A DNA stretch of 64,000 bases. Source: an uncultured Acidobacteriota bacterium (lineage in GTDB: Bacteria; Acidobacteriota; UBA6911). Position 1 is the first letter of the stretch. The number at the start of each line of letters is the position of its first letter. Location of the stretch: NCBI GenBank assembly GCA_963827655.1, contig CAWHCF010000017.1:12580-76579 (forward strand). The letters run 5' to 3'. A model generated the notes under the pieces. The model was given only the letters and a program-made list of their open reading frames with translations. It had not been told where the DNA came from and did not search any database. Below are positions 1 through 62,769 of this stretch, one piece after another. Made by a program: the position numbers and the translations under genes.

Positions 1-2783
1 TCTCGTTGAGAGGATCGCCGAACGTCACATCTCCGATGACGCCCGGACCGTCGGCCGTGACCACGAGAGACCCCTCGGTCAAAACCGTAGCCAGCGACGC
101 ATCGGCGAGACTGAAGATCGATTCTCCCCGGGCTCGGATCTGGGCCCCGGGAGCAAGTTGCCGTGATACGACCGGCGTGACCGGTGTGCCGTTGTTGCCG
201 ATGAGCTGGAGCTGAATCGTTCTCGGCTGAGCGCTGGTGTTGATGAAGTTGAGGTCGGTGAAAAATCGGATATCCCCGGTTCCACCCGAGGCAAACTGGG
301 CGGAATAGAGCTTTGTGGCAACAGAAGGAGGTTGGGCCGGCAGGGCGAAGACCGTAACGCCGCCATCGATAGACTGGTAGCCGATGACTCCGACGTTGCT
401 TGTGAGTTTGACGTATCCGGTCAAGCGCGGCTGCGCGATGCCGGGAAAGAGAGTGCTAAGGTCCTCCGCTATTCGACCGCGAGGAGCGAGAGTACGCGCC
501 ACCATGGCCTGCACGGCTCCGTTACTGTCCGTGAGCCTGAATTCCAAGGTAGCGCTGGTCGCATTGGGATTGACGACGTCGATGAGATTCTTGTAGGTAT
601 TGCCCAGAAAAATCCCACTACCCAGCTGGGCGCGCGTGAAATAAAGTTCCGTGTAGGTCTGGTTCCCGGCAACCGCGCCATCCAGCAAGTTCTGATCCGA
701 ATCGCCGTCCAGGAAGAACCCGGTTACCTGACTGCTGGTGGACTGCGCTTGAATCCAGCCGTTTCGCGGATCACTGAATGAGAGTCCGAGAACCTGCTCG
801 GCCAGCATGGCGACCTGTTTGCCGGGGCCGATCGTCACCATTCTGGGGTTAATGATGCTTCCGGGTGTTGTCGTCTGATTCCCGCCGTTGTCGAAGGCGG
901 TGAATAAGACATCCGCCGGCGTCGAGCCCCAGTTTGCCAGCGCAAGTCCCGTGAAGCGCTTGGCGTCACCCTGGAAATAAGGGAGGTTTATGCTGGCGGG
1001 CGTGGTGCCCGGACCTCTCTGAAGATCGGTCACAATCCAGCCCCGCTCTCCGCTCTGCTCGTTGAAGAACTTTACCCAGGCATTTCGGATGTTCTGAACT
1101 TTGGCAATCTGGTCCGGAGCCGGCTGCTGGCCCCGCTTGGTGAGAAGAATAAAGGCCTGGCGAAATACTTTGGGAGACTGCAGCACTGAAGGCTCGCGCG
1201 CGCCGTTTGCGGCGATGATGCTGTCGATGGTGACCTCTTTCCGGGTGCCGCCAAACGTCACGCCGATCTGCGGCGCGGAACCGGGCTGACGCGTGGTGCC
1301 GATCACGTTTTCGACCACGAACATGTTGGGAACATCTTCCTTTCCCACCAGCCCTATCGCATATTGGTCCAGACGGCTCAAGGTATCGGTCCCTCGGACT
1401 GTGACAAAACGCGTGTTGCCCGACTCGGCCCCGCGATCCTGGATATCATTTCCTTCCATGACGGAACCATCCGAGTCGAAGAAGAAACTCCAATGAGCCG
1501 CGTCCCGGCCCAGAATGGTTCTGGAATTGATCTCGCCATCGCGGAAGCGAGTGAAGGCCAACCACCGATGACCCGATTCCTGGCCCAGAATGCCCAGCGT
1601 GCTGTTGGTTCCGAGGTAGACTTGATTCGGGTCGCTCGGATAACGTTGCGGGCCCGTCAGGCTTCCCATCATTACGAAACTCCGCAACCGCCCGCCGCTT
1701 CCGAAGAAAGAAGTGTTATCACCTCGCCCGAGACCGATCCCTGAGACTTCGTTCTTGATATTGAGCTCGTAAGCGTAGGCGTCGCCCAGATTGAAATCAA
1801 AGTCGAGGAAGATGATCAGATGGTCGAAGTCATCCGGGTGGCTCTGGTAGAACTTCTTGGCCACAAGCGTCTCGGAAATAATCGACTCACTCGAGAAGAC
1901 CTCGACAATGGCGCCGCTCAGCGCGCCGGTGGGGAGATCGGAAGAAAAATTCACCGGAGCAATCCCGGTCTGGTTTGAACCCGGAGTGATGCCTGTGATG
2001 GCCTCTATGCCATCCACCCTCGGCCCGTAAACGAATTCGATAATTCCATTCGTGAACAATTTGATACTGAAGCTGTTGGCATTGGTGGTGTCGAATTGCG
2101 GGACGTTTTCCCATATGAACACGATGCCGTCGGAATCACGACGGAAGCTGATTGATCCGGTCGAGGGATCGAGGTCATTGAAAAAAGCACCGATCCGCGG
2201 AGGTCCGTAAGCAAAGCGGGCTAAATCTCGGTCGGTGCTTTCGGGGTCGGGCGTATTGAACGTCAGGTTCCCGTCAGAGTTCACGTTCACCGATGTGTAA
2301 CTTGCGCCGTAGAAGGTGAACGAGAATTCGAGGGAGATGGGACGCGAGTCATCATCGCTCAGGGGGATCCGGGTTCCTCCCGAAGCGTTGAAACCCGTGC
2401 TGGTGCTTGAAACACGATAACTGTTTGCGCCGGCCGGTTCGAAGCGTGAAAGACTTTCCATCAAGATCGAACGGGTTCGTGTCGGTTATGAGCGTGCCGT
2501 CATCTTCAATGACAGCGACGTCACCAATATCCGCCTGGATCCTGGATTCGCCCGCTGCCGCCAGCAGGCGGTCACGGCCCGGCCTTTTGAAGTTCAGTTG
2601 TTCGTAGTAGAGCCCTCGCGCCAACGCATTGAGCTCTCGCTGGGGACTTGTTCCGCAAACAAAGCGATGTTCCGAAACAGCCTGGGTTTTGATCGCCAGG
2701 TTGTTCTTGGAAATCCCAAGAGCCGGGATGACGGTGAAGGTCAGGATGCAAGCTATGCGTAGTCGTACTTTTGAAAGACTCAT
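1..2783 (-). pseudogene. Large secreted protein, disrupted as sequenced. The signal-peptide N-terminus (ATG 2783) is in one frame and the ~820-codon body (2461 to beyond position 1) is in the +1 frame. The C-terminus lies outside the window.
   Basis: My translation of the minus strand from 2461 down to 1 has no stop (...SRFEPAGANSYRV...LGQESGHRWLAF...AAHWSFFFDSDGSVMEGNDI...). It is absent from the ORF track because it has no stop in the window. ORF 2352..2957 supplies MSLSKVRLRIACILTFTVIPALG from ATG 2783, then turns into low-complexity junk after ...NPFDLDGKS. No family recognised. Confidence 0.6.
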
Positions 2784-3060
2784 GTCGTTAAGACTTGGAA
2801 AGCTCCTTTTGATTAGTTGGCTGTACTTCGCGTTTCTTGGTGTCATCGAGTCTCCGTGGTTAATGGGGCGGAACAAAACCCAAACCTCTAAGACTCGAAG
2901 AAACGCCGAGATACCAAGACGCGCAGAAACTCTATAGAGTACCGGGAACCATTTCAAGGTTCATCAAAGGCGCCGCTTTCGGGCACAAACCCGGTAGCCC
3001 GATTCGAGTAGAGCGCCCGGTGGAGCGTGCTCGACACGCCTCCGAACCTAATGATATATC

Positions 3061-3089
3061 TTGGCTTGTGGTCTTTAGGATGCTATACT
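3061..3089 (+). promoter_or_regulatory. Candidate sigma70-type promoter for the OmpA-family gene
   Basis: TTGGCT (3061-3066), 17-nt spacer, TATACT (3084-3089), about 110 nt upstream of ATG 3202. Sequence match only. Confidence 0.35.
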
Positions 3090-3201
3090 CGCGTCAGTTT
3101 TTTGGGGGTTTCGGTCAGGAACCTCGTTGGTTGAAATCGGTTGGGGTGCCGGAGCATCCATAGCATGTCGCTAGCTGCATTCACGGAGGTTATGGATCAT
3201 T

Positions 3202-5316: not shown

Positions 5317-5338
5317 TTCTGACGTCTTCGCGTCCTGG

Positions 5339-12539: not shown

Positions 12540-13616
12540 ATGAGTGGAGAAACATCGTCCGTGCTTGATCTGCCGGATCGGTGGGCGTCCATCGATCGGC
12601 AAGGGATGCGGGATGTGCTTGAGTCATCTCCGAACCAGCTGCGATCGGCAGTTGAGATAGCCGGTCGCATTTCGGTTTCGATTCCGGGGCAGATCGCCAA
12701 CGTTGTTGTCACCGGGCTCGGAGGTTCGGCGATTGGAGGGGACGTCGTCTCCTCGGTGGCAGGAGAATTGCTGCGCGTCCCCTTGATTGTGAACCGCGAC
12801 TACGGGCTGCCAGCGTTTGTAGGTCCGTCTTCGCTGGTTATCGCGTGCAGCTATTCCGGAAACACGGAAGAGACCCTGGACGCGTTCGCGGAAGCGCGCC
12901 GCTCGGGCGCATCCGTCTTCTGCGTCACCTCGGGCGGGCGGCTGGCTGCCCTGGCGCGAGAACAAGAGATTCCGCTGGTACTGATACCCGGAGGGTTGCA
13001 GCCCCGGGCGGCGCTCGGTTTCTCGACCATCGCGCTTCTGGGCGCGCTTCGAGCCTTCGGATTGGTTCCGGACTTGACGGGCGCTTGTCAAGAGACCATC
13101 AACCTTGTCTCTTCACTCGTAGATCGCTACCACCCGGAGATTCCGGAAGCAAGCAACAGAGCCAAGGTTCTGGCGCGCTCACTGCACGGACGAATTGTGG
13201 TGATCTACGGATCGACCGGTGTGGTAAGTGGAGCGACGGTCCGATGGCGTGGTCAGATGGAGGAAAATGCCAAGAATCTCGCGTTCCATCATCTGCTGCC
13301 GGAAATGAATCACAACGAGCTGGTTGGTTGGGAATACCCTGCGGAAATCCTGAAGCAGCTGGGTGTCATATTCCTGAGGGACCGAGGGGATCACCCTCAG
13401 GTACAGCGGCGGTTCGAGTTCACACGAGAGTTTATCGCCGCCCGCGCCGGAGTGGCGCACGAAGTGTGGACCGAAGGGGAGTCTCGGCTGGCGCGCATTT
13501 TTTCAGTCATATGCCTGGCGGATTTTGTCAGCCTGTATCTCGCTTATCTGAACGAGGTCGATCCTACGCCGGTTGAAGCGATCGAAGCGCTGAAGCACAA
13601 ACTTGGCCGCTCTTAG
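12540..13616 (+). CDS. Bifunctional phosphoglucose/phosphomannose isomerase (SIS domain)
   Basis: 358-aa ORF with SIS-type GLGGSAIGGDV and CSYSGNTEETL. Length and C-terminal half are typical of the PGI/PMI family. Its TAG stop (13614-13616) lies at the edge of the MITE-like element. Confidence 0.75.
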   Translation: MSGETSSVLDLPDRWASIDRQGMRDVLESSPNQLRSAVEIAGRISVSIPGQIANVVVTGLGGSAIGGDVVSSVAGELLRVPLIVNRDYGLPAFVGPSSLVIACSYSGNTEETLDAFAEARRSGASVFCVTSGGRLAALAREQEIPLVLIPGGLQPRAALGFSTIALLGALRAFGLVPDLTGACQETINLVSSLVDRYHPEIPEASNRAKVLARSLHGRIVVIYGSTGVVSGATVRWRGQMEENAKNLAFHHLLPEMNHNELVGWEYPAEILKQLGVIFLRDRGDHPQVQRRFEFTREFIAARAGVAHEVWTEGESRLARIFSVICLADFVSLYLAYLNEVDPTPVEAIEALKHKLGRS

Positions 13617-13755
13617 GGTTCGCGCAGAAATAAGTTCGCATTCTGCAGCCCGAAGGGGCGCGATCCTCAGCCTGCTTAGCGAACAGAAACCGGTTCATGA
13701 TTGACCGCCGGCTTTCGCGCCAGAATGTGAAGTTATTTCTGGGCGAGCCCTTAGG
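13612..13755. mobile_element. MITE-like palindromic element, copy 1 (~140 bp)
   Basis: Left end AGGGTTCGCGCAGAAATAAGTTCGCATTCTG. The reverse complement of the right end is AGGGCTCGCCCAGAAATAACTTCACATTCTG (~27/31 match). It shares a conserved core (GCGCGATCCTCAGC.TGCTTAGCGAACAGAAACCGGTTCATGATT) with copies at 24028 and 48253, and is flanked by TTAG on both sides. Confidence 0.8.
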
Positions 13756-24027: not shown

Positions 24028-24180
24028 CCTAAGGGTTCGTGCAGAAATAAGTTCGCATTCTGCTGCGCCCCAGGCCCGACGGGGCGCGATCCTCAGCGTG
24101 CTTAGCGAACAGAAACCGGTTCATGATTAACCACCGACTCTCGCGCCAGAATGTGAAGTTATTTCTGCGCGAGCCCTAAG
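24028..24180. mobile_element. MITE-like palindromic element, copy 2 (~152 bp)
   Basis: Same terminal inverted repeats and core as copies 1 and 3. Flanked by TAAG on both sides. Intergenic, between the ccsA-like gene and the M50 protease gene. Confidence 0.8.
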
Positions 24181-36187: not shown

Positions 36188-36252
36188 TTAGCGTTCGCGC
36201 AGAAATAAGTTCACATTCTGCTGCAGGCCCGAGGCCGCCGGCTAGGCGCGAG
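36188..36252. mobile_element. Truncated (left-half) copy of the MITE-like element
   Basis: GCGTTCGCGCAGAAATAAGTTCACATTCTGCTGCAGGCCC...GGCGCGA matches the left ~65 bp of copy 3 and then diverges. It overlaps the 3' end of the decayed gene. Confidence 0.7.
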
Positions 36253-39200: not shown

Positions 39201-39257
39201 CAGCAGGGGACCCAACAAGGTCGAAAGCCTGGTTCCACGTGTCAAAGTTTGTTTCAT
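36211..39257 (-). pseudogene. Choice-of-anchor-I family secreted protein with a nested phytase-like (esterase-like activity of phytase) domain, broken by five +1 frameshifts
   Basis: Six consecutive minus-strand ORFs read as one protein: 38682..39311, 38249..38797, 38074..38499, 37773..38105, 37055..38011 and 36211..37032. Landmarks in order are signal peptide [178 protein letters not shown] and [16 protein letters not shown]. Confidence 0.8.
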
Positions 39258-39562
39258 CGGGCGTTGAAATGCCATGTAGCGCATGAGCAGCCTCCGGGTC
39301 GTAGAGATCACAAGATTTCGGATGCGAAGGAGGGAGATCGTGCCCTGGAGATGTGAACCATTTTTGACAGTCTTGTGACTTAAAGGTTAAGAACCTGCGG
39401 CGGAAAACGCAGCAGTACCTGTCCAGGAACGGGCAACAGATTTACAACTCGGTCCAATACGGAGGAACAGTTAAACCTCTTTTGGTGTCAAAACAGCGGG
39501 CTTTCTTGGTCGCAAAGGTCAGGCGTGCCGGGTGAGTTCAAGCAAGTTCAAGGAGGATAAGC

Positions 39563-39949
39563 ATGACGACAAGGGCTTTAACCCTTACCATCCTGTGGCT
39601 CATGGAGGCTGCGGTCTATGCTCAGGCTGGAGTCGCGGGTAAGTGGCGCACAGCCGAACAACCAAACCCGGAACTAGTAATCCGATTGGACCTCGAAACA
39701 GACGGAGCCCGGGTGTCTGGCACCGTAACCCATTTCGAACAGGAGCCGCGTCAGATTTCAAACGGAAGAGTAGACGGATCGAAACTCAGCTTTGAAACCG
39801 CGGGGCTGCTTAACGGCGAAGAAGTTACTGTTTCCTGGCACGGTGAAGTCAAAGGTGACGACCTTGCCCTGAGCCGCCGAATCCAGATGCCCAACGGTCG
39901 CATCATCACCCCTTCGGGCGACCCACATAAATTTCATCGAGCGAAGTAG
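39563..39949 (+). CDS. Small secreted hypothetical protein
   Basis: 128-aa ORF with AAGGAGG-like RBS (caaggaggataagcATG) and signal peptide MTTRALTLTILWLMEAAVYAQA. No family recognised. Confidence 0.6.
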   Translation: MTTRALTLTILWLMEAAVYAQAGVAGKWRTAEQPNPELVIRLDLETDGARVSGTVTHFEQEPRQISNGRVDGSKLSFETAGLLNGEEVTVSWHGEVKGDDLALSRRIQMPNGRIITPSGDPHKFHRAK

Positions 39950-42475: not shown

Positions 42476-42601
42476 TCAATTCACGGCGGGACCGATCCAG
42501 ACCGTCTGGATGTTTACGAATTCTCGAATGCCGAACTCCGAAGCGCTTGAGCATTCTTCGGTCGCGGGATTGATCGATTCGATGATTCCGTGAGAAGCCA
42601 T
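42476..42601 (-). pseudogene. 41-codon micro-ORF that looks like an aldehyde dehydrogenase reduced to its N- and C-termini by an internal deletion
   Basis: GGAGGtgaatATG, then MASHGIIESINPATEECSSASEFGIREFVNIQTVWIGPAVN*. ...INPAT(G)E... is the usual ALDH N-terminal motif, and ...G(I/L)xEFxxxKTVWI... is the usual ALDH C-terminal motif. Confidence 0.4.
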
Positions 42602-42611
42602 ATTCACCTCC

Positions 42612-42710
42612 GGCAGGCCGGCAGCAGGGGCACCCGACTACGACCCACAGCTTTCAGCCTTCAGCCTACTGTTTACTGCGTACTACTTGCTGCCTGTTAC
42701 TGCTTGCTGC
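42612..42710. repeat. Heptamer-periodic inverted repeat (GGCAG / CTGCC type) overlapping the metG 3' end
   Basis: GGCAGGC CGGCAGC AGGGG (42612-42630) faces CAGCTTT CAGCCTT CAGCCTA CTGTTTA CTGCGTA CTACTTG CTGCCTG TTACTGC TTGCTGC (42648-42710). The metG stop (42683-42685) and last ~9 codons lie inside the array. Confidence 0.75.
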
Positions 42711-44365
42711 AACCTGGCAACCTGGGCGTCGATGACCGGGTCTTCGATCTTTTGGAACAGGATTTCCCTCGGCCCGAGGGGTTGGCCTTCAGGCAGCCTC
42801 AGCGTGGAGACCTCATCCCAGCGGCGGTAGTCGGGCGCCTTCAGCATCTGGCGCAGCTTTTCGGCCGAGAACGGCATGAAAGGCTCCATCAAGAGCGCGA
42901 GCGCCGCCTGGAGCTGCAGGGCGGTGTTGAGCGTAGTCGCGCACCGCGCCCGATCGGTCTTTGCCGTGGACCAGGGTGCCGCGTCGTTGAAATACTTGTT
43001 TCCGGCGCGGGCCAGATCCATCAATTCCCCTAACGCCCGCCGCACTTGAAATTCGTCCAGTGACTTTCCGATCCGGCCAGCGGCGGCGACCGTCTCGGCC
43101 AGAATCGCGCAATCGACGGGGGCGAGCGGCCCCGCCGGAGGAACCTTTCCTTCAAATTGCCTCTCGATGAACGAGAGGGTGCGGTTCACCAGATTGCCCA
43201 GCACGTCTGCGAGTTCACTATTGTTTCGGGTCTGGAAATCCTTCCACGCAAAGTCGGCGTCCTTGGTCTCAGGGGCATTGGCGGCCAGGTAATAGCGCAG
43301 GGGGTCAGGCGGGAAGATCTCCAGGTAGTCGTCGACCCATATCGCCCAGTTCCGGCTGGTGGAAAGCTTCTGTCCCTCAATCGTGAGAAACTCGTTGGCC
43401 GGGACATTGTCGGGCAGAATGTAGTCTCCGTGGGCCATGAGCATGGCGGGCCACACGATCGCATGGAAGACGATATTATCCTTCCCGATGAAATGGATCA
43501 GCCGCGTGTTGCGATCGCACCAATAATCCTTCCAGCGCTCTGGAGTGTTCAGTTTCTGCGCCCATTCGACAGTGGATGAGATGTAGCCGATCGGGGCATC
43601 AAACCAGACATAAAGCACTTTGCCTTTGGCTCCCTCCAGAGGGACCGGGATCCCCCAGTCAATGTCGCGCGTGATCGACCGGTCGGTCAGCCCTTCGTTG
43701 AACCAACCCGAGGAGAATTCGCGCACATTGCTTTTCCAGCGCGCCTTCGATTCCTGCCACTTCTCGAGAGCCTCTTGAAACTGCGAAAGTCTGAAATACC
43801 AGTGGAGCGTGGATCTCATTTCAGGCGCCGAGCCGCAAATCTTGCAGCGCGGGTTAATGAGCAACTCGGGTTCGAGCCAGCGGCCGCACGATTCGCACTG
43901 GTCACCGCGGGCCCCGGGGCGATGGCAATGAGGACATTCCCCCTCGATATAGCGGTCGGGGAGAAATCGTCGGCACGTGACGCAGTAGTACTGCTTCACC
44001 TCCTGCTGTCGAATGTGCCCCTTGTCGTAGAGCTTCGAAAAAAAGTCTTGCGAGATCTTATGGTGCAACGGAAGAGAAGTGCGAGAGTAATTGTCGAAAT
44101 TAATACCGAGAGCCCGAAAGCTCTCCTTTATCATCGAGTGGTACCGGTCCACGATCTCCTGCGGCGAAACACCCTCACGATCGGCGCGGATGGTAATCGG
44201 TACACCGTGCTCGTCGGAGCCGCAGATGAAAACGACGTCGCTCCCTTTGAGCTGCTGATACCTGACGTAAACATCCGCCGGAATGTAGGCCCCGGCCAGA
44301 TGGCCCAGGTGTAAGGGCCCATTGGCGTAGGGGAGGGCGGCGGTTACAAGTATTTTTTCAGGCAC
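42683..44365 (-). CDS. metG: Methionine--tRNA ligase (short form, no C-terminal tRNA-binding domain)
   Basis: GTG start. ALPYANGPLHLGHLAG is the HIGH motif, CPHCHRPGARGDQCESCG are the zinc knuckles, and GQKLSTSRNW is the KMSKS variant. Confidence 0.95.
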   Translation of the reverse strand: MPEKILVTAALPYANGPLHLGHLAGAYIPADVYVRYQQLKGSDVVFICGSDEHGVPITIRADREGVSPQEIVDRYHSMIKESFRALGINFDNYSRTSLPLHHKISQDFFSKLYDKGHIRQQEVKQYYCVTCRRFLPDRYIEGECPHCHRPGARGDQCESCGRWLEPELLINPRCKICGSAPEMRSTLHWYFRLSQFQEALEKWQESKARWKSNVREFSSGWFNEGLTDRSITRDIDWGIPVPLEGAKGKVLYVWFDAPIGYISSTVEWAQKLNTPERWKDYWCDRNTRLIHFIGKDNIVFHAIVWPAMLMAHGDYILPDNVPANEFLTIEGQKLSTSRNWAIWVDDYLEIFPPDPLRYYLAANAPETKDADFAWKDFQTRNNSELADVLGNLVNRTLSFIERQFEGKVPPAGPLAPVDCAILAETVAAAGRIGKSLDEFQVRRALGELMDLARAGNKYFNDAAPWSTAKTDRARCATTLNTALQLQAALALLMEPFMPFSAEKLRQMLKAPDYRRWDEVSTLRLPEGQPLGPREILFQKIEDPVIDAQVARLQQAVTGSK

Positions 44366-44367
44366 TG

Positions 44368-44680
44368 CATCCCTCCGGCGTCGTGGATAAAGAGCGTAAT
44401 AGTACCATACGCCTCAAATGGAGACTGACCATTGTCCCTGCGGCTTCAGGTCAAGAAATCGTCAATCGTCAATCGTCAATCGAGAGGTGGCTGGGGCGAG
44501 AGTTACATAGTCGGTGAGGGCTTCATCCCTCCGGCGTCGTGGATAAAGAGCGTAATAGTACCATACGCCTCAAGGGAGACTGGCCATTGTCCCTGCGGCT
44601 TCAGGTCAAGAAAATCGTCAATCGTCAATCGTCAATCGAGAGGTGGCTGGGGCGAGAGTTACATAGTCGGTGAGGGCTTC
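44368..44680. repeat. Tandem direct duplication, 2 x ~156 bp
   Basis: 44368-44523 and 44524-44680 are about 97% identical by eye. The differences are AAATGG vs AAGGG, TGACC vs TGGCC and GAAATC vs GAAAATC. Each unit contains the (AATCGTC)3 array, the last ~20 codons plus stop of the NUDIX gene, and the sequence that precedes the metG start. Confidence 0.9.
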
Positions 44681-45184
44681 GCGCGTCGACGGGAAGGCCA
44701 GCTCTTCCCAGGGAATCTCGGACGGCTCGAAGGCGCGTACTTCCTGGCTTTCGCTGGTTCGGCCGGCAACTCCTCCCGTCACCGTAGCGAGATACACAAC
44801 CAGCACGACTCCCACCTGGCTGTAAGAGTAGACATTCAGCAGGTCGTCGAGCCTGATATCGAGCAGTGTTTCTTCAAGGGTTTCTCGGATGGCAGCGTCG
44901 GGAACGCGCTCCCCCAGGTCTACATAGCCGCCAGGGAATGTCCACCGGCCGTAGCCCGGTTCGATGTTGCGCCGCAGCAGCCAGATCCGGCCCTCCTGAC
45001 GCGGTACGGCGGCGGCCACAATCTTTGGATTCAAGTAGTAGATGAAACTGCAGCCCGAACAGAATTTCCGCACGCGTTGCTCAAACTCGATAAACTTATC
45101 TTCGAGCTTTCCGCCGCAGCGCGGACAATACTTGACCCAGGTTGAATCGACGCTGTGCTGGTGTGGATGGTAAGTCGAATGCAT
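44618..45184 (-). CDS. NUDIX hydrolase with N-terminal zinc ribbon
   Basis: CPRCGGKL...CSGCS ribbon, and Nudix box GGYVDLGERVPDAAIRETLEETLL. The last residues RLTIDD* are encoded by the heptamer array. Confidence 0.85.
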   Translation of the reverse strand: MHSTYHPHQHSVDSTWVKYCPRCGGKLEDKFIEFEQRVRKFCSGCSFIYYLNPKIVAAAVPRQEGRIWLLRRNIEPGYGRWTFPGGYVDLGERVPDAAIRETLEETLLDIRLDDLLNVYSYSQVGVVLVVYLATVTGGVAGRTSESQEVRAFEPSEIPWEELAFPSTREALTDYVTLAPATSRLTIDD

Positions 45185-47540: not shown

Positions 47541-48239
47541 GTGCTGAATCATCTTAAGCTCCTGGTGTGGGACCTGGATTACCTCGTCTTCGACTGTTCA
47601 GCGCTCAAAGTTTCAGCTTTGCGCCAGAGCCTTATCTCATTTGCCGAATCGATTCCACAGAGTGTCCGCCTTCCTGATGCCATCGATGCCGAAGGGGGTT
47701 ATCTCGACTATGGATTTCGCTGGCCCCAGTTTCTTGAGATTGGTCTTGATGAGGAGCGATTGGGGCAGTTTCAACGCGCCTTCCACATCCACCAGGACCG
47801 CTATGTTCAAGCCGGTGTGGGCCGGGTTTATCCTGGAGTGCATGATTTTCTGATGGATTGCCGGAAGGGGGACATCCGCCTGGCGCTGGGCGCCGAGGCG
47901 AGCCGCGACTATCTCCTGGCCGTCACGGATCAACACAGACTCGACAACATATTCGATATGGCGCTGTGCACCGAGGAATTCGGTGTAGGTAGCGCCGACG
48001 AGATGTTCGAGGAAATCATGAACCACACCGAGGTCTATCCGAGCGAAACCCTGGTGCTTGGAACCCGTCCGGCCTTTTTTCAGGCGGCGCACAACCTCGA
48101 CCTGCTTACGGTTGGCTGCGGGTGGGGGCTGCGCCAGCAATACCGGCTCGCCGAAGCCGATCTGCAGGCGCCTGCGCTGTCGCATCTGCACGCGGTCATC
48201 GAGCAGGCCGACCACCTCTCTAATCGTTACTCGAGCTGA
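47541..48239 (+). CDS. HAD-superfamily hydrolase
   Basis: Motif I LVWDLDYLVFD (DxD). 232 aa with HAD-like spacing. Subfamily not recognised. Confidence 0.6.
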   Translation: MLNHLKLLVWDLDYLVFDCSALKVSALRQSLISFAESIPQSVRLPDAIDAEGGYLDYGFRWPQFLEIGLDEERLGQFQRAFHIHQDRYVQAGVGRVYPGVHDFLMDCRKGDIRLALGAEASRDYLLAVTDQHRLDNIFDMALCTEEFGVGSADEMFEEIMNHTEVYPSETLVLGTRPAFFQAAHNLDLLTVGCGWGLRQQYRLAEADLQAPALSHLHAVIEQADHLSNRYSS

Positions 48240-48252
48240 TTCCCGACAGAAT

Positions 48253-48409
48253 CTAAGGGTTCGCGCAGAAATAAGTTCGCATTCTGCTGCAGGCCCCCAG
48301 ACCCGCTGGCGAGGCGCGATCCTCAGCGTGCTTAGCGAACAGAAACCGGTTCATGATTAGCACCGATTCTCGCGCCAGAATGTGAAGTTATTTTTGCGCG
48401 AGCCCTAAA
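48253..48409. mobile_element. MITE-like palindromic element, copy 3 (~157 bp)
   Basis: CTAAGGGTTCGCGCAGAAATAAGTTCGCATTCTGC...GCCAGAATGTGAAGTTATTTTTGCGCGAGCCCTAAA, with the same core as copies 1 and 2. Intergenic, between the HAD and LarE-like genes. Confidence 0.8.
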
Positions 48410-48469
48410 GGGCGCAAAGAAGGGCAGAGAACTTTTGTGTCCTGGTGTCTTCGTGGTAAAGTGTGACCC

Positions 48470-49288
48470 ATGGAACTGCATGAAAAGGAAGCCAGACTGG
48501 AAGCCCTGCTCAAGGAGCTCTCTCCGGTCATGGTGGCGTTCAGCGGGGGAGTGGATAGCTCGTACCTCGCGTATAAGGCCCACCAGGTTTTGGGCGACCG
48601 GGCGCTGGCCATCACGGCAGAGAGTCCCTCGGTTCCTTCGCATCAGCGCAAGATGGCACTCCAGGTGGCCTCGCAGTTCGGGTTCCTCCACGAGATCATT
48701 CATACGGATGAAGTAACCCGCGACGATTATCGAGAGAACTCCCCGAATCGCTGCTACTTTTGCAAGGATGAGCTGTACAGCAGGCTCGCGGCGTTGGCGA
48801 AGGAACGCGGATTTTCCGCCATAGTCGATGGACTGAATGCGGACGATCTGGGAGATTTTCGGCCCGGGCGCAAGGCAGCCCGCGAACAGGGAGTACGGAG
48901 TCCCCTGGTCGAGGCCGGGCTGCGCAAGGAGGAAATCCGCGAGCTGTCGCGGCGCGCAGGTCTCCCGACTGCAGACCAGCCTGCCTCGGCTTGCCTTTCT
49001 TCTCGTTTCCCATACGGTATCCAAATAACCGAGGAGAAACTGGCCATCGTGGACCGCGGAGAAGAGTCGCTGCGAGAAATGGGCTTCCGCGTGTTCAGGG
49101 TGCGGCACCACGAGGATACTGTACGGCTCGAATTCGGACCTGAGGATCTCAACCGCGCGCTCGATTTCGAAATGGCGAAGAAACTGACCTCCGTGTTCAA
49201 GCGCCTGGGATACAAATACGTAACGCTGGACCTGGAAGGATACCGCAGCGGTTCGCTCAACGAGGTGCTGGTCCGTAGCATTGATTAG
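48470..49288 (+). CDS. PP-loop ATP pyrophosphatase, LarE-like sulfur transferase family
   Basis: PP-loop VAFSGGVDSSYLA, CYFCK, and ...PASACLSSRFPYG (LarE-type Cys loop). 272 aa. Confidence 0.75.
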   Translation: MELHEKEARLEALLKELSPVMVAFSGGVDSSYLAYKAHQVLGDRALAITAESPSVPSHQRKMALQVASQFGFLHEIIHTDEVTRDDYRENSPNRCYFCKDELYSRLAALAKERGFSAIVDGLNADDLGDFRPGRKAAREQGVRSPLVEAGLRKEEIRELSRRAGLPTADQPASACLSSRFPYGIQITEEKLAIVDRGEESLREMGFRVFRVRHHEDTVRLEFGPEDLNRALDFEMAKKLTSVFKRLGYKYVTLDLEGYRSGSLNEVLVRSID

Positions 49289-51124: not shown

Positions 51125-51165
51125 TCCTGGAGTTTCTTCGTGTCTTAGCGGTATTTGTTCCGCAT

Positions 51166-52243
51166 TTAAGATTGGGGCTTCGCGGCGAAGTAGCCCTTTC
51201 GATACCGGAGATGGTGGGTAGGATCCGCGCCGTCAAGAACGACTTTCACTCGCCGAAAGGCGCCGTCGCGCGCGGGATTGGAAGAGATAAAACCGATGCT
51301 GTACTGGTTGCGGAGTTCGTGGGCGATCTCGGACACGATGCGCGTTCATCTCGGCTACTTTTTGCGGGAAGAATGCCTTCCCGCCGGTCTCGTCCGAAAT
51401 CTTTTGCAGAGCGTCGCGCGCCTTTTCCGGCACCGACTTTGAGAAGCGTCCGAACAGACCTTTCTCGGGAGTCGGATTCATGATTCCAATATTGAAAACC
51501 TGAACATCAAGCTCCTGGACCTTGGCCACCAGTTCGTCCAGCTTGTAATAGCTGTCACGATCCTCTCCGTCGCTGACCACGACGACTGCTTTCTTGGGTT
51601 TCTTGCCGGTCTGCGCCTTCTGGATACTCAGGTAGATCGCGTCATAAAGAGCGGTCCCTCCCGAGACGATCGTGTTCTCGAGGGCATCCGTGATCAGATC
51701 GATATCGCTGGTGTAGTCCTCGAGCAGCTCAATCTCATCGTTAAAGCCCACCAGAAAGACTTCATCCTCAGGATTGCTGGCCTTGATAAAGGCGAGAGCG
51801 GACCGGTTCACCATCTCGATCTTGTTCCGCATGCTTCCACTGATGTCCAGGGTAATCCCCATGCTGACCGGGACGTCCTCCTGGGAAAAAAACGAAACGT
51901 TCTGCGCGACGCCGTCCTCGAATAGCTTGAAATTCTCCTTCTTCAGACCTCCGACGAAATGACCGTTCTTGTCATAAACGGAGGTATGGACAACGACCAG
52001 ATCGACACTGACGCCGATCGTGTACCCCTTCTGGCGCTCTGGACGCTCTTCCTGAGGGGAGCCCGACTCAAGTTCCGGCTTGTTGGGCCGTTTTCGTTCG
52101 TCGGGTTTGGATTTACCTTCGTCGGGTTTGGATTTAGCCTGGGGAAACGCCGAGAGTACGGTTGAGTCTGAAATCGAGCTGGAAATGACGAGGGTCAGGC
52201 AGAGCGCAATCGCGGCGGCCGCTAAGCTAAGTCTTCGGCGCAT
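51166..52243 (-). pseudogene. VWA-domain protein, VWFA-related acidobacterial family, with a +1 frameshift near 51340-51347
   Basis: ORF 51233..52243 is family-like up to ...GGKAFFPQKVAEMNA and then turns to junk. The next frame reads IVSEIAHELRNQYSIGFISSNPARDGAFRRVKVVLDG...HLRYRKGYFAAKPQS* (stop 51166-51168), matching the paralogue C-termini. Confidence 0.7.
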
Positions 52244-53273: not shown

Positions 53274-55523
53274 CTATTTCCCCACCAGCCGGTCCAAAAA
53301 TTCGAGTCCAACCAGAACTTCTCGCGGTTTGGAGCCTTCGGCGGGACCGACCAGGTTGTTTTGATACATCATGTCGACGAGCTTGGCGGCCCGACCATAA
53401 CCGATACTGAGACGTCTTTGAAGCAAGGACGTGGAGGCACGCCCCTCGCTCACCACAATCCGGACGGCATCGTTGTAGAGTTCGTCATGCGCGCCGCCGT
53501 CCACCGGGTTTCCCTCCTCATCGACTTCTTCCTGGCCGTAGGTAAGGACGGAATTGTCGTACGCCGGGCGGCCCTGGCCGCGCAAGTGCTCGACAATCAG
53601 CAGAGCTTCCTTCTCGGTGACAAAGGCGCCGTGAACGCGGGTAAGCCTGGACGAACCGGGCGGGATAAACAGCATGTCGCCATTTCCCAGAAGCAGTTCG
53701 GCGCCGTTAGAATCAATGATCGTCCGGGAGTCGACCTTCGTGGCCACCTTGAAAGCGATCCGGCAAGGAAAATTCGCCTTGATCACTCCGGTGATTACGT
53801 CGACCGAGGGCCTTTGGGTCGCGAGGATGAGATGTATGCCGACGGCTCGGGCCATGGCGGCCAGGCGTGAAATCGATTCTTCAACCTCACGCGACGAAAC
53901 CATCATGAGGTCAGCCAGCTCGTCGATGACCAGGATCAGGTAAGGAAGCGCCTTCTCGAGTTCCCCCTCGATGTCGTTGCTGTCGATGAGCGACAGCTGG
54001 CGTCCGCCCGCTCGAATCAGGGTATTGTACTGGTCTATATTCCGAACGCCTCTCAGGGCCAGTTTTTTGTACCGCGTCTCCATCTCGCTGGTAGCCCAGC
54101 GCAATGCATTTGCCGCCTCCTTGGGATCCGTCACGATGGGAGTCAGTAGATGAGGGATGTCGGCATAGATTCCGAGCTCGAGACGCTTGGGGTCGATCAA
54201 AATGAACTTCACTTCCTCGGGCGTGGATTTGTACAGAACCGAGGTGATCATGCAATTCAGCGCTACGCTCTTGCCCGCTCCGGTAGCCCCCGCGATCAGA
54301 AGGTGCGGCATCTTGGCCAGGTCGGTCACATAGACATTGCCGTTGATTAATTTCCCCAGTGCGAGGGTAAGTCTGGATTGAGACTTTCGGAAGACTTCCG
54401 ACTCGATCACCTCGCGCAAAAAGATGGTTTCGCGCTGCGGATTGGGCACCTCCATTCCCACGGTAGCCTTCCCGGGAATGCGATCGATTCGAATCGACTC
54501 CGCCTTGATCCCCAGGCATAGATCGTCGACCAGCGTGGTGATTTTCGAGTACTTGATGCCGGCATCCGGTTTGAACTCGAAAGTGGTGACGACAGGACCG
54601 GGATGAATCTGGGTGATGTTTCCATGCACGTCGAATTCCGCACACTTGTCGGATATCTGGCGCGCCCGTTCCATCAGCTCCGCTTCGTTCACACTCAGAT
54701 GGTCTTCAACTTCGGCCAGCAGGTCGGAAGGCGGAAACAGGTATTTCCGGTTGCGCGGCCGGTCGTCGACCGGTGAGGGACGGGCGGCTTCGGTCTCGGG
54801 CGCTCGTACGACCGGAGGACGCGGTTCGGATCGCGTTGTAACCTGGCTGGGTTTTACGGGCACAGGACGCGGCGTCAGATCCAAGACTGCGGAACCCGCA
54901 GATTTTATGTTGACCACGGTTCGGAGTGGTTTGCGACTCTCACGCCAGCTACGAAACCTCTTCAGCAGACCCGGACCTGCCGATTCCTTTTCGGCTGCAA
55001 GGCGGCCGACTGTGGCGTCGAGCGAAACGGTCGTCGCTGTCAACAGCCCGAGCACGAAAGTTCCAATCAGCAGCACCACGGTTCCGGTCAGGTTCAGGTT
55101 TGGCAGGAGCAGATCCGCCAGCAGCACACCGACGACACCTCCCGGCAGGAAGTTGACGTCCGGCAGCGGAATCGGAACCATCTGCAGGACCGTGCAGGCG
55201 GTGGCAATTAACAGCGCCAGTCCGAGCGCGCGCAAGTACGGCGATTGAATTTGCCGGCCGCGGATCAGTTTCCAGCTCAGGATGACCATGGGAATCAACA
55301 ACAGAAAGGCCGACAGACCCATAGCTTGAAAGAGAAGGTCGCTGACAATGGCGCCGACTCTCCCTATTCGATTCTCGGCTCCTGCCTTGTTGAAGATCGA
55401 GTTGAAACTCGAGTCGCTCGGATTGTAAGAAACCAGACAGAAAAAGAGCAGGATGGTCACAAGCAGGCCAAGGACTCCAATGTACTCGTGCCGCTTCGCC
55501 GGAGTGTGCAGGGACATGCTCAA
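53274..55523 (-). CDS. ftsK: DNA translocase FtsK
   Basis: Four N-terminal TM helices, Walker A IAGATGAGKSVALN, and gamma domain LLQRRLSIGYGRAAKLVDMM. Confidence 0.95.
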   Translation of the reverse strand: MSMSLHTPAKRHEYIGVLGLLVTILLFFCLVSYNPSDSSFNSIFNKAGAENRIGRVGAIVSDLLFQAMGLSAFLLLIPMVILSWKLIRGRQIQSPYLRALGLALLIATACTVLQMVPIPLPDVNFLPGGVVGVLLADLLLPNLNLTGTVVLLIGTFVLGLLTATTVSLDATVGRLAAEKESAGPGLLKRFRSWRESRKPLRTVVNIKSAGSAVLDLTPRPVPVKPSQVTTRSEPRPPVVRAPETEAARPSPVDDRPRNRKYLFPPSDLLAEVEDHLSVNEAELMERARQISDKCAEFDVHGNITQIHPGPVVTTFEFKPDAGIKYSKITTLVDDLCLGIKAESIRIDRIPGKATVGMEVPNPQRETIFLREVIESEVFRKSQSRLTLALGKLINGNVYVTDLAKMPHLLIAGATGAGKSVALNCMITSVLYKSTPEEVKFILIDPKRLELGIYADIPHLLTPIVTDPKEAANALRWATSEMETRYKKLALRGVRNIDQYNTLIRAGGRQLSLIDSNDIEGELEKALPYLILVIDELADLMMVSSREVEESISRLAAMARAVGIHLILATQRPSVDVITGVIKANFPCRIAFKVATKVDSRTIIDSNGAELLLGNGDMLFIPPGSSRLTRVHGAFVTEKEALLIVEHLRGQGRPAYDNSVLTYGQEEVDEEGNPVDGGAHDELYNDAVRIVVSEGRASTSLLQRRLSIGYGRAAKLVDMMYQNNLVGPAEGSKPREVLVGLEFLDRLVGK

Positions 55524-55541: not shown

Positions 55542-57245
55542 CTAGATTTCCAGAACTAACGGGACAATCATAGGGCGAGTTCCCGTGCGCTTGCGAAAGA
55601 ATCGCTTCAAATCGGCACGGATCATTTCGGTCAAAACCAGAGAGTCGGCACGTTCTTCTTCGGTGCTTTCCTTAAGGGTGTTAAGTACGATCTGCTTGCC
55701 CTCGGCCAGGATTGCGGAACCCCCTTTCTCGTCAAGGTGCCCCCGGCTGACCAGTTCGGGCAAGCCTTCAAGCTCGCCCGTCGACTTGTTGATCGCTACC
55801 ACGGCCAGAACGACTCCCTCCTCGGAAAGATGCTGCCGGTCTCGAACCATGAACTCATCGACGTCGGCCATGCCGCTGTCATCCAGGAGCCGCCGTCCCA
55901 CCGGAGCCTTGCCACGAATCCCGGCCCAGTCCGCGGTGAAGGTGATAATGTCGCCGGTCTCGGCCAGGAGGATCCGATCTTTGGTAATCCCGGTTTCCTG
56001 GGCAACCAGCGAGTGATGATAGAGCTGGCGGTATTCTCCATGGATCGGGACAAAAAACCGGGGCCGGGTTAGGTTCAGCATGAGCTTCAACTCTTCCTGG
56101 CTCGCATGTCCGGAGACATGAATCGACCACCTGCTCTCGTCGTAGACTTTTGCGCCACGCCGGCAAAAATGGTTTATCAGATGTGAGATGCGGCTCTCGT
56201 TTCCCGGAATCGCCCGGGCGCTGATGATTATCGAGTCATCCGGCTCCACTCTGAAGTTCTTGTGTTTGTCCAGCGCAAGCTTTCCCAGGGCCGCCATCGG
56301 TTCACCCTGGCTTCCGGTCGCCAGCAGGACGATCTGGTCAGCCGGGAGTTGCAGGCCCTCATTTATGTCCGCCAGAGTTCCGGCAGGAACGCTTATGTAT
56401 CCCATGCTACGAGCAATCCCCAGGTTCTCTTTCATGCTTCGTCCGACAAGCACTACGCGTCTTCGGAACTCCCGGGCCAGTTCCAGGATGATCTGGATCC
56501 GATGAATGCTCGAGGCGAAGCAGGCCACGATGATCTTGCCCTGGCTGGTATGAAAGATCTGTTCGAGGTGCCGCTGTACGTGGTTTTCGGAAGGCGTGTA
56601 CCCGGGCCGTTCACTATTTGTGCTGTCGGAGAACAGAGCCAGAACCCCGCGTTCTCCGTAATAGGAGAAGCGGCTGTAGTCAGTGGTTTTGCCATCGGGA
56701 GGAGACTGATCGAACTTGAAATCCCCCGTATGAATAAGGGTTCCCAAATCGGTCGTGATGGCGAGTCCGATGCTATCGGCTATGCTGTGGGTTACCCGGA
56801 GAAACTCCAGGTGCATGTCGCCGACTTGCAGGGTATCGCGCGCTTGAACCCGGTTCAGCTGAACGCGGTCGAGCAGCCTCTGCTCTGAAAGCCGTCCTTC
56901 GGCGAAGGCCAGCGTGAGTGGAGTGCCATACACCGGCGCCGGAATCTCGTCGAGCAAGTAGGGAAGAGCTCCAATGTGGTCCTCATGGCCGTGAGTCAGC
57001 ACGATCGCTTTCACTTCGTCCTTGTGCTCCACCAGGTAGCGAAGGTCCGGCACGACGAGGTCGACCCCGAGGAGGTCATTGCGAGGAAACATCAGTCCGG
57101 CATCCACCACCAGAATGGTTCCGGCGTGGCGGATGGCCATCATGTTCATTCCGAATTCCCCCAGTCCTCCCAGGGGAATCACTTCAATCTGGTCGCTGGT
57201 CACAGTTCGCGGCTCGTCCGGTAAAGTGCGCGAAAAGTATAACAT
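55542..57245 (-). CDS. rnj: Ribonuclease J
   Basis: Metallo-beta-lactamase motif LTHGHEDHIGALPYL plus beta-CASP and C-terminal domains. 567 aa. Confidence 0.9.
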   Translation of the reverse strand: MLYFSRTLPDEPRTVTSDQIEVIPLGGLGEFGMNMMAIRHAGTILVVDAGLMFPRNDLLGVDLVVPDLRYLVEHKDEVKAIVLTHGHEDHIGALPYLLDEIPAPVYGTPLTLAFAEGRLSEQRLLDRVQLNRVQARDTLQVGDMHLEFLRVTHSIADSIGLAITTDLGTLIHTGDFKFDQSPPDGKTTDYSRFSYYGERGVLALFSDSTNSERPGYTPSENHVQRHLEQIFHTSQGKIIVACFASSIHRIQIILELAREFRRRVVLVGRSMKENLGIARSMGYISVPAGTLADINEGLQLPADQIVLLATGSQGEPMAALGKLALDKHKNFRVEPDDSIIISARAIPGNESRISHLINHFCRRGAKVYDESRWSIHVSGHASQEELKLMLNLTRPRFFVPIHGEYRQLYHHSLVAQETGITKDRILLAETGDIITFTADWAGIRGKAPVGRRLLDDSGMADVDEFMVRDRQHLSEEGVVLAVVAINKSTGELEGLPELVSRGHLDEKGGSAILAEGKQIVLNTLKESTEEERADSLVLTEMIRADLKRFFRKRTGTRPMIVPLVLEI

Positions 57246-57325: not shown

Positions 57326-58142
57326 CTAGCGGTTGAAGTTACGGGCGTAAATGGCCGCCAGTCTTTCAAATTCCTGGATGGTCAGGTCTTCGGCCCGGCG
57401 CCCCGGATCGATACGGGCTTGGGCCAGGAGTGCGTCTGATACGAGCCCGATCTGTGGATCGTGGCGGAGAGAGTTGGCAAGCGTCTTGCGTCGATGACCG
57501 AATGCCGCTTTGGCGACAGGAACCAGAGAGTTGGTTAACGTCCGGTCTTTTGGCCGTGGGTGTGGTCGAAAGGTAACGACCGCAGAAACTACCTGCGGAC
57601 GCGGTGAAAAGCAACCAGCGGCGACTTCGAATTCCAGTCGCACCTGCGCGAGATGCTGGCAGTACACCGAGAAGTAACCGTACTGGCGCGTTCCGGGGCT
57701 GGCGACTATCCGCTGGGCTACCTCGAGCTGGACCATGGCGGTGATGTCCCGGACGGAAAGATCGAGGGAGAGCAGCTTCTCGATGATGGCTGTGGCTATG
57801 TTATACGGCAAGTTCCCTGTCACTCTGAGAGACTGGCCGGCTTTCAGGTAAGGGGATACCAGGGCCGGGATATTCAAGCTCAGGATATCCCCCGCCACGC
57901 ACCGTTGCGGAGGGAAAGCGGGCAAGGGAAACCTGGAGCGCCGAAACGCAGTCGCGGTCCAGTTCCACCGCGACCAGCCGAGCCACCCGTGGAGCGAGGC
58001 GCTCCGATAACGCTCCATACCCGGCGCCAACCTCCAGAACTGTGTCGGTAGAGGCCGGGTCGACGAGACGGATCAGACGGTCCAGAATCCGTGCATCTCT
58101 AAGAAAATGTTGCCCCAAACGCTTCTTTGCCCGTGACTTCAC
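57326..58142 (-). pseudogene. rsmA: 16S rRNA (adenine1518/1519-N6)-dimethyltransferase, frameshifted as sequenced at a C5/G5 run (57889-57893)
   Basis: ORF 57801..58166 gives KKRLGQHFLRDARILDRLI...VLEVGAGYGALSERL...AVELDRD. ORF 57326..58030 gives ...AGDILSLNI...LRVTGNLPYNIATAII...RPHP...AFGHRRKTL. A GTG start at 58142 is preceded by GGAGG. A sequencing error is a likely explanation. Confidence 0.8.
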
Positions 58143-60007: not shown

Positions 60008-60054
60008 GGTCAGACACCTACGGTTCTGGACACTGGGTCAATAAGGAGGCAGGA

Positions 60055-60531: not shown

Positions 60532-60537
60532 TTGCTA

Positions 60538-60559
60538 AAATTAGGGACGTCCCTAATTT
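60538..60559 (+). terminator. Perfect 22-bp palindrome; likely intrinsic terminator of the purA-membrane protein unit
   Basis: AAATTAGGGAC|GTCCCTAATTT starts 7 nt after the stop at 60529-60531. As RNA it gives a 9-bp stem and ACGU loop ending in UUU. Confidence 0.5.
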
Positions 60560-60806
60560 CCCACGGGTCTGGCGTTCTGCTCGGCGAGCCCTCATTCGTT
60601 GCGTCATTTCACGGCGGGCGCTCAAAAAGGAATCAAAGACCCTTCCGTCCAGGAGATACTGCTCTCCGGCTATCTTTTCGATTCGAGCAACTATCCTCAT
60701 CGCCGCCGCCTCCGATATCAATAGAGTCTACGAATCAGAGGCCCTGTCTGGTTTTCAGTTTTTGGTTTATACTTGAAAACAACCTTGCCGCGTGAGGAGA
60801 TCCACG

Positions 60807-61343
60807 ATGAAGGTCAAGAGTCCTGCTACCCTCGAAGACCTGATGAAAATGCCCAAGGACGGCTACAAATACGAGCTGGTGGATGGATCAATTGTGGCCA
60901 GTCCCACCGGCATGTATCATTCCGAGGTTGGGGCGCGTATTTCCTATATACTCCAGAAATTCCTGGATCAGGAACCGCTGGGGCGGATCTACGGGAGCGA
61001 CGTAGGGATCCAGCTGCCGGATGGGAATTTGCGTTCTCCAGATGCCTGTTTTGTCTCCGCAGCAAAACTCCCGGGAGGGAAATCCCCGGTTACCTTTGGT
61101 GAACTGGTTCCGGACCTGGCGGTCGAGGTTCTGTCTCCCGGCGATAGCGCGCGCGAAGTTGCCGATAAAATCGGCGAGTATCTCGAGTGCGGCGTCCCGT
61201 TGGTCTGGCTGGTCGATCCCAAGGGGAAAACGGTTACCGTTTACCGGACACTGACCGATGCGCGGCGCCTGAGCTCCGAAGAGATTCTCTCGGCCGAGCC
61301 GGTTCTGCCGGGCTTCTCGTGCCGGGTCTCGCAGTTCTTCTAG
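60807..61343 (+). CDS. Uma2 family endonuclease (DUF820, PD-(D/E)xK-like)
   Basis: ...YELVDGSIVASPTGMYHSEVG...RSPDACFVS...VPDLAVEVLSPGDS...KIGEYLECGVPLVWLVDP fits the Uma2 pattern. ATG 60807 is preceded by GAGGAG. Confidence 0.8.
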   Translation: MKVKSPATLEDLMKMPKDGYKYELVDGSIVASPTGMYHSEVGARISYILQKFLDQEPLGRIYGSDVGIQLPDGNLRSPDACFVSAAKLPGGKSPVTFGELVPDLAVEVLSPGDSAREVADKIGEYLECGVPLVWLVDPKGKTVTVYRTLTDARRLSSEEILSAEPVLPGFSCRVSQFF

Positions 61344-61406
61344 CAACCCGGCTTCCCGGTTCTTGGTTTCGAGCCTTGGTGGTTAGCGTCCAGGAATTTC
61401 ATTGCC

Positions 61407-62769
61407 TCAGTCCACCGGCTTTACCTCTTCCATCAGCGTGAAGAAGCCTTCGGCCAGCGTTGGGTGAATGTAGACCGCGCCCTTCAGCAGCGTGTAGGGG
61501 AGGTCGGCCAGCATCAGAGTGCCCAGCATCTGAACCAGCTCTCCACCCTCGGTAGATAGGATTGCGGCGCCTAGTATGCGGTCGTTAGAGGCATCGACGA
61601 CCAGCTTCATCAGACCTGCAGTCTCGTCGCGTTCGATCGCCCGCGCGACCCGGCTCATCGGGATTTTCCCCACCTTGACTCGAAATCCTCTGTTCTCGGG
61701 CCTCCTTTTCACCGATGCCGACACGACCGAGCTGTGGATCCGTGAAAACCGAGTAAGGAACGATGCGGTGGTCGATAGTCAGATTCTTGTTCTCGATCAG
61801 GTTGGCGTAAATGATCTGGTAGTCGTTGTAGGATATGTGAGTGAAGGCCGGTCCCCCTTTAACGTCGCCCAATGCCCAGATACCCGGAACGTTGGTTTCC
61901 AGCCGGCCGTTTACTTTGACAAAACCACGGCTATCCGCTTCCACTCCGGCTTTCTCGAGACCCAGGTCTCGAGTGCTGGGGACTCGCCCGGTGGCGATGA
62001 GCAGGTGAGAACCCGAATGCGTCGAGGAGCCTTCCACATCGAGAAGGATGCGGCCGTTTTTTCGGTGGACGCGCGATGTTCGCGCATTCAGAACGAAGCG
62101 GACACCTTCCGCCTCCAGAGCCTTCTGAAGTTCGGCGGCAACGTCAGGATCCTCACGCGACAGCACTTGATCATGAGCGTGGACGATGGTGACCTCGCTG
62201 CCGTAGCGACGAAACATCTGGCCGAACTCGAGACCGATGTAGCCTCCGCCGAGGATGAGCAGGTGTTCGGGGAGTTGGCGCAGCTCCATCAGGGTGGCAT
62301 TGGTCAGGTAATTGATCGCGTCCAGTCCTTCGATCTTTGGAATGGCGGGATGAGTTCCTGTGTTTATGAAGATTCGTTCGCTCTCGAGTGTTTTATCGCC
62401 GACCGTGACGGCGCGCGGACCTGAAAAGCGGGCCTGCCCCCGGTAGAGGTGGAGGTTCGGACGGCTGCTCACGCCGCGCTCAAGGCCGGCGCGGAAACTC
62501 TGCACGACCTTGTCTTTCTGTGCCACAATTTCGGCCAGGTCGACGCTCACTTCGCCGGCGCGGATACCCCACCGGGCGGCGTTGCGCGCGTAATGAGCTA
62601 TCTGGGCGCGCGCGACCATGGTTTTGGTCGGCGTGCAGCCGGTGTTGACGCACGATCCTCCTAAATGTTCTTTCTCGATCAGGGCCACGGACCACCCCTG
62701 ATCGGCCAGTTTCTGCGCCAGCGGGTTGCCTCCCTGGCCGGAGCCGATTACGATCGCATCGTGTCTCAT
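61407..62769 (-). pseudogene. Class I pyridine nucleotide-disulfide oxidoreductase (mercuric reductase / dihydrolipoamide dehydrogenase-like), with a +1 frameshift near 61695-61705
   Basis: ORF 61585..62769 gives DAIVIGSGQGGNPLA and the redox CVNTGCTPTK, and is good up to ...TDPQLGRVGIGEKEARE. ORF 61407..61724 gives the dimerisation domain RGFRVKVGKIPMSRVARAIERDETAGLMKLVVDA...AVYIHPTLAEGF. Confidence 0.75.

Follow-up and report, generated by a model that had tools for sequence, protein, structure and literature searches.

The window, a stretch of 64,000 nucleotides (nt) from contig CAWHCF010000017.1 (positions 12,580 to 76,579) of the uncultured Acidobacteriota assembly GCA_963827655.1, contains six genes whose reading frames are broken ten times in all, each time in such a way that skipping a single nucleotide restores the frame. 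Are these genes being lost, are they decoded in an unusual way, or is the deposited sequence wrong? The assembly is that of a soil acidobacterium and comprises 8.18 Mb in 53 contigs, with a marker completeness of 90.3%. The deposited sequence does contain the breaks; they are an assembly artefact and not biology. We are highly confident that the ten breaks are residual single-base consensus errors of the draft assembly, because essential genes are split in this genome, in-frame stops are few, the lesions are uniformly 1 nt in size, and orthologs and other strains are unbroken. The genes of the organism itself are almost certainly intact.

A three-periodic hexamer coding model was trained on 2,104 long open reading frames (ORFs) of the same genome and combined with a seven-state Viterbi procedure permitting frame changes, which was run blind to the breaks listed in the original prediction. 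The scan of the window returned exactly ten same-strand frame changes, all of the skip-one-base (+1) kind, at estimated positions 2442, 35632, 37067, 37878, 38121, 38358, 38817, 51340, 57898 and 61698. None of the other frame changes in the window was a convincing -1 event, giving a tally of ten skip events and zero in the opposite (add) direction. The ORF pieces and frames listed earlier were correct, and the claim that all ten breaks go the same way, with one nucleotide skipped at each, was recovered independently. In the scan, the upstream frame was usually open well beyond the shift site, and the site was unmarked by a stop codon.

Genome-wide, 3,086 same-strand neighbour pairs with overlapping open frames were found. 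When delta, the likelihood margin of a candidate frame change in the Viterbi scan, was set to at least 6, there were 1,077 strong candidates, 792 skip and 285 add; at a delta of at least 10, there were 590 and 192, respectively. Each of the 53 contigs had events, with densities of 0.5-4.5 per 10 kb that were more uneven than one uniform rate would give (chi-square 155, 52 df). By a looser criterion, 64-kb windows of this genome contain a median of 11 events, and the ten in the window studied here are therefore typical. Candidates were also evaluated, independently of delta, by whether both flanking pieces match one intact paralog at consecutive coordinates. This paralog test confirmed 720 of 2,410 candidates, 534 skip and 186 add (74% skip), and at a delta of at least 10 the confirmation was equal in both directions (250/543 and 75/160, respectively). 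These proportions are as expected if most strong candidates are real and a usable paralog exists for roughly half of the genes.

For calibration, 470 extra and 441 missing bases were put into intact genes in silico. Recall was 98% for each kind without a threshold, and 68.9% for insertions and 56.9% for deletions at a delta of at least 6, showing that the detector has no more than a slight preference for skip events. The control for break density was one 400-kb stretch of one relative, the same-family genome G006, with 87% called coding; it contained 9 candidates at a delta of at least 6 (7 skip and 2 add), compared with 52.6 per 400 kb here, a difference of about six-fold. After background subtraction and recall correction, the estimate was about 940 insertions and 430 deletions, or about 69% insertions. 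An even division between the two directions across the genome, named in the original prediction as an outcome that would count against it, was not what was found; the breaks lean about 3:1 toward the skip direction. The directional bias is real but not absolute. The probability of 1/512 previously assigned to ten agreeing breaks was based on the wrong null: because 69-74% of the breaks in this genome go the skip way, the probability of ten out of ten is 0.02-0.05. Furthermore, five of the ten breaks are in one gene, making their independence questionable, and they may have one shared cause.

Six essential genes were examined by NCBIfam searches of the genome. Four of them, rpoB, rpoC, secA and dnaE, were split, all in the skip direction, while gyrA and ileS were intact. 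The profile coordinates in the two consecutive pieces were 4-961 and 921-1238 for rpoB, 1-538 and 543-1004 for rpoC, 1-145 and 145-783 for secA, and 1-228 and 223-1022 for the main dnaE; a second, weaker polymerase paralog on contig C47 was intact. The four junctions are on contig C8, near 80.9, 83.8 and 37.5 kb, and on contig C29, near 161.8 kb. No cell could live with rpoB, rpoC, secA and dnaE all broken. In-frame stop interruptions were rare: the paralog test confirmed as single genes 34 of 747 same-frame neighbours lying one or two stops apart, 21 times fewer than the confirmed frameshifts (34 vs 720). Lesions were also pinned by alignment with paralog DNA, which required at least 93% identity and a single indel within the interval where the shift could lie. 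From 83 events with a paralog of at least 80% protein identity, 49 were pinned; 16 were left out because they had two to four indels, and another 18 because their identity was under 93%, they were duplicates or they gave no alignment. Exactly one extra base was present in 34 of the 35 pinned skip events.

Among the pinned events, 1-nt insertions outnumbered 1-nt deletions by about 3:1. Most of the inserted bases were G or C (28/36) and adjoined no identical base (26/36), and the contexts of the pinned events differed from one another. Of the pinned one-base deletions, 8 of 11 were in runs of at least 2 and 6 of 11 in runs of at least 3. Near skip sites, homopolymers of at least 4 were not enriched genome-wide, and G/C runs of at least 5 were found at 4.7% of 827 skip sites vs 5.2% of controls. 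The 271 add sites were enriched, with runs of at least 5 at 10.3% and runs of at least 6 at 4.1% vs 1.1%. The earlier statement that the extra base sits in or beside a short G/C run therefore does not hold, as the association is no greater than chance (runs of at least 4 are not enriched at +1 sites). Homopolymer slippage was rejected as the cause of the insertions, given that runs are not enriched at skip sites and most pinned insertions have no identical neighbour. A k-mer scan around the 827 skip sites found only generic GC-rich words increased, by about 1.3-3 fold. A methylation-type or slippery motif was likewise rejected: three pinned sites in the window share CGC/GCG, yet no such word is prominent genome-wide.

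Indel errors are described, in the sections of the Kastor paper that bear on them, as fragmenting genes in long-read or low-coverage consensus assemblies, which is the problem that Kastor addresses (PMC12007338); proovframe is presented in the summary part of its report as a tool against such frame-breaking indels (bioRxiv 10.1101/2021.08.23.457338). Like those assemblies, the present one carries hundreds to thousands of 1-nt indels, essential genes included, and has a completeness lowered to 90.3%. In the Nanopore benchmark, as far as its sections on a 59% GC genome go, deletions are tied to homopolymers and insertions to no particular homopolymer (PMC12007338), and the same combination of homopolymer-bound deletions and unbound insertions is seen here. 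The excerpted text of a PacBio simulator paper contains no usable insertion/deletion ratio for consensus sequences (PMC5964698).

A comparison with orthologous loci, which the original prediction had proposed, showed that homologs of rsmA, the VWA-domain gene and the choice-of-anchor gene are unbroken. The break in rsmA (16S rRNA dimethyladenosine transferase, minus strand) lies within 57803-58072. The RrnaAD profile covers 3-72 in one piece and then 81-261 in the next, and four orthologs (loci L029, L030, L077 and L037) span the break in one frame. The orthologs read P-N-A-V-V-V-A-G-D, while the window reads P-S-A-T-V before the frame change and V-A-G-D after it. The extra base is thereby placed at 57899-57900, in GTG-C-GTG, and so lies upstream of the C5 run to which it had been assigned (57889-57893). 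In the acidobacterial VWA-domain gene (minus strand), the break lies within 51235-51345, with the extra base in GCGC at 51340-51343. NCBIfam TIGR03436 runs over the two pieces at 2-267 and then 273-323; orthologs read N-T/S-IVSEIAHELRNQ across the site, in a single frame at loci L030 and L031, and the junction is also bridged by a paralog. Metagenome contigs with the RNase J-like neighbour (55545-57245) were scanned for near-identical DNA, and the best of the 80 loci kept had only 73% protein identity, in a scan from which very near records may be left out. Because near-identical metagenome DNA was not found, pinning to the nucleotide was possible only by protein alignment to orthologs or with the DNA of close paralogs at other loci of the genome.

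Five of the ten breaks are located in the choice-of-anchor I gene (36214-39311, minus strand). Its choice_anch_I Pfam coordinates continue over the pieces as 11-94, 102-239 and then 261-489, and a Phytase-like profile is nested inside the gene, matching 62-117 and then 97-284 in consecutive pieces. The six pieces contain zero in-frame stops and have Pfam scores of 67-242 bits. When 30 relatives were searched with the DNA of the locus, no close ortholog was found; the search gave one 66% match, in G026, and numerous copies of a short repeat. The G026 homolog is one unbroken frame spanning breaks 1 and 5. Break 1 (38684-38844, site about 38817-38825) falls between choice_anch_I positions 11-94 and 102-239, and the alignment with the G026 homolog extends to 38844 in one frame, with the following frame taking over from 38818. 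Break 2 (38251-38514, site about 38358; delta 17.1) and break 3 (38076-38135, site about 38121; delta 4.0) are placed only by coding potential and by the absence of the start of the profile. The inserted domain at break 2 was covered by no ortholog found, and the extra base may lie in the G6 run at 38372-38377; the piece upstream of break 3 had no direct family match. Break 4 (37775-38248, site about 37878; delta 11.5) separates Phytase-like positions 62-117 from 97-284. Break 5 (37057-37092) was located by Pfam, Viterbi and the homolog to a GG or AA doublet within 37068-37072; the homolog matches as far as LPDG in one frame and again from TYLVTANEGD onward in the following one.

The remaining three breaks are in genes of different kinds. 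In the large secreted protein (minus strand), 2354-2485 is open in both frames and the site, from the Viterbi scan and a paralog, is about 2442; the paralog, on contig C22 (71% and 64% identity), bridges the junction with a 2-residue offset. In the small outer-membrane beta-barrel protein (OMP; plus strand), the break lies within 35600-35742 (delta 6.3). The downstream frame holds the barrel (OMP_b-brl profile 39-155), and the upstream frame holds the signal peptide and a FELxPxxG start, as in three homologs. The N-terminal motifs of homologs place the likeliest site at 35629-35632, in ACGC without a homopolymer. In the pyridine-nucleotide-disulphide oxidoreductase (minus strand), the break lies within 61587-61778, at about 61698 (delta 10.7), with Pyr_redox_dim positions 1-27 matched where the upstream piece ends and positions 24-106 matched by the piece downstream; none of the loci compared gave an ortholog with two aligned pieces, and homology support for this break comes from Pfam alone.

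Contigs of other soil and rhizosphere runs, representing related strains 91-99% alike, were aligned over a 20-kb stretch, in which seven of the sites were covered and three were outside. In contigs of X4, an independent soil run, the intervals 37888-38337, 38678-39620 and 51165-51838 were each one base shorter than in the window, with one gap each in the first and third and a net difference of one base in the second. They cover the sites at 38121, 38817 and 51340 and are 91-97% identical to the window, indicating another strain. In contigs of two independent rhizosphere runs (one each from X1 and X2), 36149 was joined directly to 39454, the shorter side of the join being 54 and 41 letters long, respectively. 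The segment 36150-39453, which contains the whole choice-of-anchor gene, is thus strain-variable. The depth of X1 and X2 contigs was about 10 around the gene and 0.3-3 across it. From this we infer that the segment had thinner or mixed read support during consensus building.

Genuine pseudogenisation, in which the strain itself carries the frameshifts, at least in a choice-of-anchor gene that is being lost, is an unlikely explanation. It would account for five breaks in one 3.1-kb gene with intact neighbours, for the contigs of two independent runs that are without this gene, and for the excess of genes hit several times: in the looser set of 1,557 events in 1,101 genes, 34 genes carried at least 4 breaks vs 4.7 expected, and 17 carried at least 5 vs 0.7 expected under a uniform rate. 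However, rpoB, rpoC, secA and dnaE are broken alike and cannot all be dead, and decay of this kind does not fit with confirmed stops being 21 times rarer than confirmed frameshifts. The choice-of-anchor pieces are stop-free with strong family scores, and all five of their lesions belong to the error type that dominates in this genome. The multi-hit genes keep the same direction mix as the single-hit genes, and with 34 genes carrying at least 4 breaks, the five hits in one gene do not support the earlier suggestion of pseudogenisation. In one study, deletions reportedly predominate in bacterial pseudogenes. Bacterial pseudogenes, as characterised in the relevant part of PMC6054270, have a bias toward deletions and indels of varied size, which argues against pseudogenisation here, where pinned events are nearly all 1 nt and insertions prevail about 3:1. 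The presence of frameshifted genes, some of them with more than one lesion, is a feature shared with the pseudogenes of reductive evolution; unlike those described in that part of the source, the lesions here are 1 nt long, insertion-biased and almost without nonsense changes, and affect essential genes (PMC6054270). All ten breaks in the window and the four essential genes need the same correction, which is what would be expected if real extra bases were bypassed in expression by programmed +1 frameshifting, quadruplet decoding or transcript slippage. The bypassing of real extra bases is close to refuted, and we consider it hardly credible: about a quarter of the genome-wide breaks need the opposite correction, no k-mer exceeded about 1.3-3 fold at the 827 skip sites, the pinned contexts are heterogeneous, no stop codon marks the site, with the upstream frame usually open well past it, the rsmA, VWA and choice-of-anchor orthologs are in one frame, and contigs of related strains are one base shorter. 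In prfB, which encodes release factor 2, the site of the programmed +1 frameshift is conserved in orthologs and lies in a defined slippery or stop context. The breaks studied here are like prfB in that one base is skipped for the full protein, but unlike it in that orthologs are unbroken and there is no common context. The original prediction had already regarded programmed frameshifting as unlikely, and it is rejected here on the unbroken orthologs and the lack of a common motif.

Several observations weigh against consensus error as the explanation of the ten breaks. The small skip excess among the few calls in the control stretch (7 vs 2) means that the method itself contributes to the bias at high thresholds. 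The related-strain contigs show that relatives are without the extra base, and do not show this for the strain itself; among the 12 of 44 indel rows listed, none is at the seven covered sites, and the support from X4 consists of the net length of three listed pieces, with the other four covered sites having no listed spanning piece; regions of that kind count neither for nor against. Errors are clustered beyond a uniform rate, and genuine decay would give the same. Insertions prevail about 3:1 here, unlike in the Nanopore benchmark, where deletions exceed insertions in most rows of its Table 1, the part considered here (PMC12007338); this insertion excess makes the error profile unusual. Insertion-biased consensus error had been proposed as the most economical reading for rsmA, and the present results support it across the entire genome as well as for that gene. 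The cause is inferred to lie in sequencing or consensus building. The assembly has two modes of error: in the commoner, accounting for about 70-74% of frame-breaking errors, a base (in most cases G or C, and mostly without an identical neighbour) is wrongly added, and in the rarer a base is missing, mostly inside G/C runs. Errors are also clustered locally, and the choice-of-anchor gene belongs to a segment that is missing from related strains. Because insertions outnumber deletions by about 3:1, a window with about ten errors all going one way would be expected occasionally. There is a very slight chance that some skip sites are real and that a form of +1 or quadruplet reading not yet described, and independent of any motif, decodes them or, in a milder form, that only the choice-of-anchor gene is decaying. 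If true, motif-independent +1 reading would explain why rpoB, rpoC, secA and dnaE need the same correction.

With consensus error as the preferred explanation, the finding is a data-quality warning and not a discovery. An estimated 1,100 or so genes of the assembly are interrupted by consensus errors, and any reading of genes in this genome as split, truncated, pseudogenes or subject to programmed frameshifting needs an ortholog or read check first. The error signature, with insertions at 3:1, mostly G/C, mostly outside homopolymers and clustered, is unusual and worth reporting to the assembly maintainers, and may aid builders of frameshift-correction tools.

Other junctions in the window were considered as additional breaks and rejected. 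Near 20.6 kb, hemC and hemD overlap by 113 nt as ORFs and each match a complete, separate family; near 60.0 kb, purA and the next ORF also belong to complete, separate families, which makes this a gene junction. Three further junctions (16190, 27849 and 35474) consist of the usual short overlaps between stop and start. The 17-nt overlap of two VWA-type ORFs at 52227 is also a gene junction, because an orthologous contig likewise carries two VWA ORFs side by side.

Compared with the 596-residue homolog in G026, the choice-of-anchor I gene has an extra Phytase-like esterase domain of about 430 residues, which sits between choice_anch_I profile positions 239 and 261. The final 27 codons of the ORF and its stop are overlapped by a repeat of about 110 nt, at 36190-36300. 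Since coding potential stops at 36293, the tail of the ORF probably reads into this repeat. Further copies in the window are at 48256-48319, 24032-24089, 13613-13649 and 24147-24179; the repeat has 169 BLAST matches genome-wide, and many are found in related genera (G006, G007, G008, G010, G013 and G014).

Two class-I aminoacyl-tRNA-synthetase-like genes, found as weak ileS-family matches at C29:121378-123721 and C46:20999-23534, are each split into two open frames, in the skip direction. The 34 confirmed stop interruptions are spread over contigs C1-C50 and involve 38 stops, of which 30 are TGA; some of the 34 may be pairs of compensating indels or selenocysteine codons. In the comparison with other runs, summed contig depth rose 10- to 100-fold in three soil and rhizosphere runs at 44171-44837, 48173-48839 and 53509-54175. 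The highest depth, about 1,000, was at 48.2-48.8 kb, and many loose contig ends were found at 48252-48408 and 44481-44638; these bins correspond to repeated or widely conserved elements common to other organisms. A cluster of small indels relative to the contigs of several runs was also present at 42538-42644, in the spacer between the ORFs at 40467-42278 and 42683-44365, and represents either strain variation or further consensus errors in non-coding DNA.

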